Source of the DNA: Escherichia coli
GTDB lineage: Bacteria; Pseudomonadota; Gammaproteobacteria; Enterobacterales; Enterobacteriaceae
Length of the DNA: 447 nt
Assembly (NCBI RefSeq): GCF_003334335.1
Contig: NZ_QOWQ01000189.1
Reading direction: 5' to 3' (one strand)
Below are positions 1-447 of the stretch, in pieces (position 1 is the first letter of the stretch; the number at the start of each line of letters is the position of its first letter). The position numbers and the translations under genes are program-made. A model generated the notes under the pieces. The model ran no database searches and had not been told where the DNA came from. It saw only the letters and a program-made list of their open reading frames with translations.

Positions 1-152
1 ACCCACTGTGGAATGAGGCCAAAGTGCTGCGGCCAGAAGCTGATGCGCTGTTCATCAGGGACTATGGTGGCAACCAGCTGAGGCTGGTCATTCCCTGATG
101 CAGCGGTTACGGAAACAGAAGGAGTGGTGGAATTATGCAAGACGGTTGTCAT
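1..152 (-). CDS. Antirestriction protein, ArdB/KlcA/YfjX family; N-terminal 50 codons, 5'-partial in window (continues past position 1)
   Basis: ATG is the complement of 150-152, with an in-frame stop upstream (complement of 216-218) and no alternative ATG/GTG/TTG between them. An AAGGA Shine-Dalgarno (complement of 161-165) sits 8 nt upstream. The frame is open to the window edge. Translation: MTTVLHNSTTPSVSVTAASGNDQPQLVATIVPDEQRISFWPQHFGLIPQW. The VPDEQ-I-FWPQHFG-IPQW block matches my recollection of E. coli YfjX and the corresponding region of plasmid KlcA; this is recalled similarity, not a search result. Confidence 0.75.
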   Translation of the reverse strand, partial: MTTVLHNSTTPSVSVTAASGNDQPQLVATIVPDEQRISFWPQHFGLIPQW

Positions 153-160
153 GAGATTAT

Positions 161-165
161 TCCTT
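161..165 (-). promoter_or_regulatory. Shine-Dalgarno sequence (AAGGA) for the antirestriction CDS
   Basis: Minus-strand AAGGA followed by an 8-nt spacer (AUAAUCUC) and then the ATG at 152-150. Confidence 0.6.
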
Positions 166-243
166 ATAAAAAGTAAATGAATGGAAGAAATCCCGGGGGA
201 AGGGACAGACGTGAGTCAGAACTGCGCTTTCAGGGAAACGGCA

Positions 244-447
244 TCAGCGCATACTCTCCAGCAGCGTTTCAGCCATCACCCACAATGCGCGGTTGAGCTT
301 AATGTCGGTGTCGATGCTGTGAATGGCACGGGTATGGATACGTTTTCCTCTGGCACTGCGACCGGAAATCCCGCCTTTCAGCATATTCTCCTGAATGGTC
401 TGATAAGCACTCCACAGGTCCTTACCGTAATCCTCCCGGCGTCGTGG
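244..447 (-). CDS. Hypothetical protein, C-terminal 67 codons plus stop; 3'-partial in window (N-terminus lies beyond position 447); family not recognised
   Basis: Minus-strand frame is open from the window edge to TGA (complement of 244-246). Translation: PRRREDYGKDLWSAYQTIQENMLKGGISGRSARGKRIHTRAIHSIDTDIKLNRALWVMAETLLESMR*. The sequence is protein-like with mixed composition and a basic tract (GRSARGKRIHTR). It is in the same orientation as the downstream antirestriction gene, 91 bp upstream of it. The other two minus frames are interrupted by stops. Confidence 0.65.
   Translation of the reverse strand, partial: PRRREDYGKDLWSAYQTIQENMLKGGISGRSARGKRIHTRAIHSIDTDIKLNRALWVMAETLLESMR

Follow-up and report, generated by a model that had tools for sequence, protein, structure and literature searches.

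The 447-nt stretch of Escherichia coli DNA analyzed here (the window) very probably carries, at positions 152 to 1 on the minus strand, the start of an antirestriction gene of the ArdB/KlcA family on a CP4-type island at serW, encoding a disordered N-terminal leader that lies outside the functional fold. The identity and family of the gene, its predicted fold, its genomic context, the variability of the N-terminal tail, and the predicted disorder of this tail were established from the window and from matching loci in complete genomes, as described in the following sections.

Window layout and gene identity

The whole window occurred with 100% identity in many E. coli chromosomes and was matched in 4464 of 5426 complete genomes, with a median of three copies per genome. 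All coding sequence of the window was located on the minus strand, and the following features were delineated.

1–152, minus strand: 5′ end of the ArdB/KlcA-family antirestriction gene (codons 1–50 plus 2 nt, of 161 codons), from translation, RefSeq annotation, and Pfam and PDB matches
152–150, minus strand: ATG of the antirestriction gene (WP_000214307.1), from translation
78–152, minus strand: Ser/Thr/Asn/Pro-rich variable leader, predicted to be disordered (codons 1–25), from composition, entropy, pLDDT, dN/dS, and a step in identity
3–77, minus strand: start of the folded domain, LVATIVPDEQRISFWPQHFGLIPQW (codons 26–50), with the first β-strand and helix, from invariant residues, alignment with KlcA, and the structural model
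161–165, minus strand: Shine–Dalgarno sequence AAGGA, 8 nt 5′ of the ATG, read directly
153–243, minus strand: 91-nt spacer that separates the antirestriction gene from the DUF932 gene
244–447, minus strand: last 67 codons and stop codon of the upstream DUF932 gene (WP_001234732.1, 272 aa), from Pfam PF06067 (E = 7e-52)
1–98, plus strand: 3′ end (last 32 codons) of an antisense 303-codon "shadow" ORF, not a gene

The reverse complement of positions 1–152 translated exactly as MTTVLHNSTTPSVSVTAASGNDQPQLVATIVPDEQRISFWPQHFGLIPQW, corresponding to residues 1–50 of a protein of 161 aa. Both peptide strings quoted in a preliminary description of this DNA were thus exact and encoded on the minus strand; that description left the strand unstated, and only 50 of the 161 codons fall within the window. 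We obtained the full-length protein from the identical locus of E. coli SMS-3-5 (L001: 20296–20781), where RefSeq labels the two genes "DUF932 domain-containing protein" and "antirestriction protein".

Membership in the antirestriction family, as initially proposed, was borne out by database searches and by homology with K-12 YfjX and YafX. In the full-length protein, Pfam Antirestrict (PF03230) matched residues 66–161 over the full model (1–92; E = 3.2e-37), and PHROG 10132, "anti-restriction protein", matched residues 25–161 (E = 1.4e-63). No NCBIfam model named the 161-aa protein. Among known structures, it matched ArdB of E. coli CFT073 (PDB ID: 2WJ9; E = 2.5e-98), with a core that is ~97% identical, and KlcA (PDB ID: 2KMG; E = 7.8e-21), aligned over residues 22–161. 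The protein is small and acidic (20 Asp and Glu versus 8 Lys and Arg residues) and ends in MRIID. Across 41 homologues, R36, F39, W40, F44, P48, Q49, and W50 were invariant, and the terminal D161, which aligned with KlcA D142, was at least 90% conserved. Codons 26–50 were conserved family-wide, yet lie outside the 92-residue Pfam model, and aligned with KlcA residues 5–30.

The AlphaFold2 model of the 161-aa protein (pTM 0.72) placed a strand at residues 27–31 and a helix at residues 33–44. The KlcA/ArdB fold is characterized by two small β-sheets flanking a three-helix bundle, and a Foldseek search with this model gave significant matches only to 2WJ9 and 2KMG (TM 0.70–0.80), a fold match resting on a prediction whose training data probably included these two structures.

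In the 91-nt spacer upstream of the gene, a scan for promoters and terminators gave no promoter-like or terminator-like site, and an Rfam scan of the window (E ≤ 1) returned only a chance snoRNA match, which scored 15 bits where the gathering score is 90. This spacer was swapped for unrelated sequence in other paralogues. In CFT073-type alleles (L007 22–362 and L009 2–247), the spacer between the DUF932 and antirestriction genes was ~340 nt, versus 91 nt here, and in one CFT073-type genome it contained an annotated 81-aa hypothetical ORF.

Reading frame and translation start

Two long ATG-initiated ORFs run antisense to these genes, one of 303 codons opposite the antirestriction and JAB genes (L001 20350–21261, minus strand) and one of 291 codons opposite the DUF932 gene (L001 19392–20267, minus strand). 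Their existence is what speaks for the opposite-strand frame (window positions 1–98, plus strand) being the true one and the sense ORF being spurious, a case that the preliminary description had named as refuting its proposal and a reading to which we gave practically no credence. Both antisense ORFs occupy the codon-aligned frame, in which stop codons correspond to TTA, CTA, and TCA codons of the sense strand. The island genes have a GC content of 55–58% and use these three codons at only 0.4–0.7%, a near absence that explains the long antisense ORFs; the Ag43 gene likewise contained a 406-codon antisense run. Moreover, dN/dS was 2.0 in the antisense frame versus 0.10 in the sense frame, and the 303-codon ORF was interrupted in paralogues L002 and L012, so that we rejected it as a compositional shadow ORF. 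It is the sense product that is matched in Pfam and the PDB, and a protein nearly identical to it has been purified, crystallized, and assayed. It was just as implausible that annotation has wrongly added the N-terminal extension, with translation starting downstream and the tail never being made. The Pfam model covers only residues 66–161 and plasmid relatives are 134–144 aa long (PMC2836571), as such an artefact would lead one to expect, but the only in-frame ATG, GTG, or TTG codon between codon 1 and Met61 was TTG at codon 5. Since residues 26–50 are conserved 5′ of Met61, the tail must be translated. In addition, AAGGA or GGAG was kept at the same place, at optimal spacing before the ATG, in all 12 paralogues examined, and ArdB_CFT has been expressed as a 157-aa protein including its tail, with its mass confirmed (PMC2836571). 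A downstream start codon was rejected on the basis of the start-codon scan, the conserved residues 26–50, and the conserved ribosome-binding site.

Genomic context

The preliminary description had placed the gene in horizontally acquired accessory DNA and proposed inspecting its flanks for an integrase, a tRNA, a RadC-like gene, and CbtA-type toxin–antitoxin genes. In SMS-3-5, all of these were found, including a YeeU/CbtA pair. The co-oriented gene order was GTPase, Ag43 autotransporter, DUF932, antirestriction, JAB/RadC-like, DUF987, and hypothetical protein, followed by YeeU antitoxin, CbtA toxin, DUF5983, DUF957, and DUF4942. This block (L001 14969–24736) ended 150 nt from a tRNA gene, and the ends of the island were defined by the following elements.

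L001 24886–24973: tRNA-Ser(GGA) (serW) of SMS-3-5
L013 15354–16562: tyrosine-type recombinase/integrase WP_000279862.1, by annotation only, at the far end of the SMS-3-5 island
L013 16723: 14-nt direct repeat of the 3′ end of the tRNA, CCCCCTCACCGCCA, between the integrase gene and clpA

The island, bounded by tRNA-Ser (serW) and the 14-nt att-like repeat, is ~41.6 kb long and combines the hallmarks of a CP4-type island, namely insertion at a tRNA with a direct repeat, a tyrosine integrase, and a conserved gene module. From the antirestriction gene onward, K-12 CP4-57 and CP4-6 had the same gene order; in the current K-12 annotation of CP4-57 (L011 7920–9783), yfjX and yfjY have been renamed lfgA and lfgB.

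The same SMS-3-5 island contained further genes. A type I restriction–modification M subunit gene (L001 13134–14705), abutted by IS1, had no hsdS or hsdR annotated beside it and appeared to be an orphan or a remnant of a type I system. An O-antigen-like polysaccharide cluster (L001 1–12284 and L013 1–4604), comprising glycosyltransferases, glf, an ABC exporter, and a pyruvyl transferase, was broken up by many insertion sequences (IS903B, IS3, IS5, IS256, IS1, ISL3, and IS66). Near the integrase end (L013 8561–9449), we found an inovirus-type Gp2 gene as well as a pseudogene with a frameshift ("TOTE conflict system archaeo-eukaryotic primase domain").

Composition and predicted disorder of the N-terminal leader

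The estimate in the preliminary description of about 30 residues before the conserved block was accurate, as exactly 30 residues precede VPDEQR. Ser and Thr made up 9 of the first 25 residues (36%) versus 10 of the remaining 136 (7%; Fisher p = 4e-4), and residues 1–25 included no aromatic or basic residue. This composition was conserved across homologues and the sequence was not: Ser, Thr, Asn, and Gln accounted for 48% of 69 distinct tails versus 17% of cores, and aromatic residues for 1% versus 13%. AlphaFold pLDDT was <50 for residues 1–21, and the first strand began only at residue 27. In 2WJ9, 138–145 residues per chain were modelled out of a 181-residue construct, and the missing residues are consistent with an unmodelled tag and leader. 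KlcA has a short N-terminus that is flexible by NMR. It is speculation only that a leader of this kind, uncharged and rich in Ser, Thr, and Asn, might act as a type III secretion-like signal; an injectisome is absent from hosts such as K-12.

Variation, selection, and recombination

Whether the extension is conserved or variable had been left to alignment in the preliminary description, and the alignment of homologues showed it to vary in both sequence and length. Among 120 enterobacterial homologues, almost all full-length proteins had a leader before VPDEQR. It was 18–30 residues long in homologues of typical length (about 150–165 aa), shorter in a few, and longer where the called start lay further upstream. 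Column entropy was 1.53 bits for residues 1–25 versus 0.42 bits for residues 26–161, making the tail three to four times more variable.

Beyond the close homologues, the leader was compared at four levels of core identity in a 50%-identity representative library, for which the best 150 matches were listed. Most of these were fragments or E. coli copies with frameshifts, and only ~18 distant full-length members were usable. The medians were as follows.

Core identity ≥85%: median leader of 25 residues
Core identity 60–85%: median leader of 22 residues
Core identity 45–60%: median leader of 16 residues
Core identity <45%: median leader of 10 residues

Selection was assessed in ten E. coli paralogues by the Nei–Gojobori method. 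The core was under strong purifying selection, with a dN/dS of 0.10, versus 0.66 in codons 2–25; the latter is a low-powered value, based on 24 codons of 10 non-independent paralogues at a recombining locus. Because the tail value did not exceed 1, there was no sign of diversifying selection in this comparison of ten paralogues, with its low power and confounding by recombination. Differences in the tail were spread evenly over the three codon positions (233/218/301), whereas 564 of 776 differences in the core fell at third positions. Furthermore, dS was 0.43 in the tail versus 0.16 in the core, and this excess indicated that much of the contrast between tail and core reflects different ancestry or recombination rather than faster protein evolution.

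Signs of recombination were found at two places in the gene. In several allele pairs, nucleotide identity was 33–80% up to about codon 30 and ≥97% beyond it, and some alleles combined a core of 97–100% identity with first 30 codons of 33–80% identity and an unrelated upstream spacer (L001 20296–20781 compared with L002–L010). This jump in identity, together with replacement of the spacer, indicated that the 5′ end has a recombination history unlike that of the core. A second breakpoint lay in the middle of the gene, where L001 and L002 were identical for 80 codons and 83–97% identical thereafter. The mosaic structure suggests frequent exchange among the roughly three copies per genome.

Relationship to characterized ArdB/KlcA proteins

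The closest characterized relative is ArdB of CFT073 PAI-II (ORF14, NP_752219; 2WJ9), which matches residues 26–161 of this protein at ~97% identity, has the same fold, and is likewise encoded in a pathogenicity-type island. The leaders of the two proteins differ in sequence and length, with MKTLSQNTTSSACAPETGLQ in the 157-aa CFT073 ArdB versus MTTVLHNSTTPSVSVTAASGNDQPQ in the 161-aa protein, and the spacer 5′ of CFT073 ardB is unrelated to that of the window. K-12 YfjX (LfgA, CP4-57) and YafX (CP4-6) are 68% and 67% identical to this protein, respectively, and their genes are followed, as here, by genes for a RadC-like JAB protein, DUF987, and a CbeA/CbtA-type toxin–antitoxin. They are, however, 152-aa proteins with an unrelated 18-residue leader, MTTQTQYDLVPANGSEFE, and, unlike here, no DUF932 gene is located immediately upstream of yfjX or yafX. 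KlcA of the IncP plasmid pBP136 (2KMG) belongs to the same Pfam family and has the same fold (TM 0.70/0.78). KlcA and the plasmid ArdB proteins (pKM101 and R64) are, like this protein, small and acidic with a conserved terminal Asp, and they confer antirestriction without antimodification. They differ from it in being plasmid-encoded rather than located on a chromosomal island, in sharing only ~36% identity with it, and in having only a four-residue flexible leader before the first strand.

In vivo, ArdB_CFT, YafX, YfjX, and KlcA reduce type IA–ID restriction by 10- to 9000-fold (PMC2836571), with little antimodification (Serfiotis-Mitsa et al., PMC2836571), and in vitro they neither inhibited nor bound EcoKI (PMC2836571). 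Of two proteins with very short leaders, KlcA136 (four residues) was active in vivo against each of the four type I families and the 134-aa ArdB_LPP against three of them, its effect on type IC falling below the assay threshold (PMC2836571). A 2025 study reported that ArdB(R64) directly inhibits the Bacillus type I enzyme BlihIA in vitro, that ArdB(R64) needs D141 for its activity and is inactivated by loss of this residue, and that ArdB binds DNA nonspecifically (PMC12429846). In view of the published activities of ArdB_CFT, YafX, YfjX, KlcA, and ArdB(R64), we infer an antirestriction function for the present allele with high confidence, by analogy with these near-identical and related proteins. 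With regard to the exact target of the family, the in vitro results for EcoKI and BlihIA conflict. The activity of distant members with leaders of only 3–10 residues suggests that the tail is probably dispensable for this function.

Evaluation of alternative explanations

The preliminary description had offered two roles for the extension, a disordered lead-in or a specificity determinant, and the variability and predicted disorder of the tail favored the former. As a specificity determinant, the tail would be under diversifying selection and would tune which restriction systems or host targets each paralogue neutralizes. Its three- to fourfold higher variability, the quite different tails of alleles with 97–100% identical cores, and the antirestriction values published for ArdB_CFT, YafX, and YfjX, which diverge for types IC and ID (PMC2836571), would agree with such a role. 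Those published differences are not assignable to the tails, because the compared proteins differ in the core as well. The tail dN/dS of 0.66 and the even distribution of differences over codon positions are instead those of near-neutral drift, the higher dS of the tail points to ancestry and recombination, the nearly tailless KlcA136 and ArdB_LPP are active against four and three type I families, respectively (PMC2836571), and the tail is of low complexity and predicted to be disordered. We therefore regarded a specificity determinant as unlikely. Slightly less probable still was the idea that leader and spacer are exchanged as a 5′ cassette, with recombination independent of that in a homogenized core, and that the tail serves as a functional, modular tuning element rather than neutral filler; if this were true, the leader variants would each give an otherwise identical antirestriction domain properties of its own, for instance in turnover rate, choice of partner, or export. 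The best reading is that the leader is disordered, weakly constrained, lineage-specific, and not needed for antirestriction. The persistence of a polar tail across the enterobacterial clade could reflect a weak function, for example in solubility, expression, or turnover.

A different question is whether the island protein still acts in antirestriction at all, or has been co-opted, together with the RadC-like protease and the toxin–antitoxin, into stress physiology or nonspecific DNA binding. In K-12, yfjX opens the lfgABCDE operon, which is repressed by MqsA, is induced under oxidative stress, and has been linked to stress response rather than to DNA entry (PMC10846083), and both the reported nonspecific DNA binding of ArdB (PMC12429846) and the wide distribution of the gene (in ~83% of E. 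coli genomes, with three or more copies being frequent) could be read in this direction. The phenotype of the lfgA deletion, however, reflected polarity on lfgB, and supplying LfgA did not complement it (PMC10846083), so the lfg data leave the antirestriction assignment in place. Moreover, chromosomal YfjX, YafX, and ArdB_CFT have been directly shown to be active in antirestriction (PMC2836571), and the core dN/dS of 0.10 fits a retained molecular activity. Co-option of this kind thus appeared about as improbable as a specificity role for the tail.

Implications for the ArdB/KlcA family

According to the preferred reading, an antirestriction domain preceded by a dispensable leader, the folded domain would start at about residue 26 and, judging from its near-identical and related proteins, would suppress DNA cleavage by type I restriction–modification systems and leave methylation unblocked, without acting by DNA mimicry. 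The first ~25 residues would form a polar, intrinsically disordered leader that is weakly constrained and lies outside the functional fold, differing between paralogues through near-neutral evolution and through its location, together with the spacer, in a 5′ segment with a recombination history unlike that of the core. Suppression of cleavage would in turn protect unmodified island DNA on its entry into a new host.

As an allele, the gene is ordinary and already known: its family has been characterized in structure and function, and it lies on a very common type of E. coli island. The window adds no leverage on the purpose of the leader, if any, or on the manner in which ArdB-type proteins block type I restriction. 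Beyond correct annotation the finding has little importance; what the gene does provide is a marker that the window belongs to the accessory DNA of E. coli.
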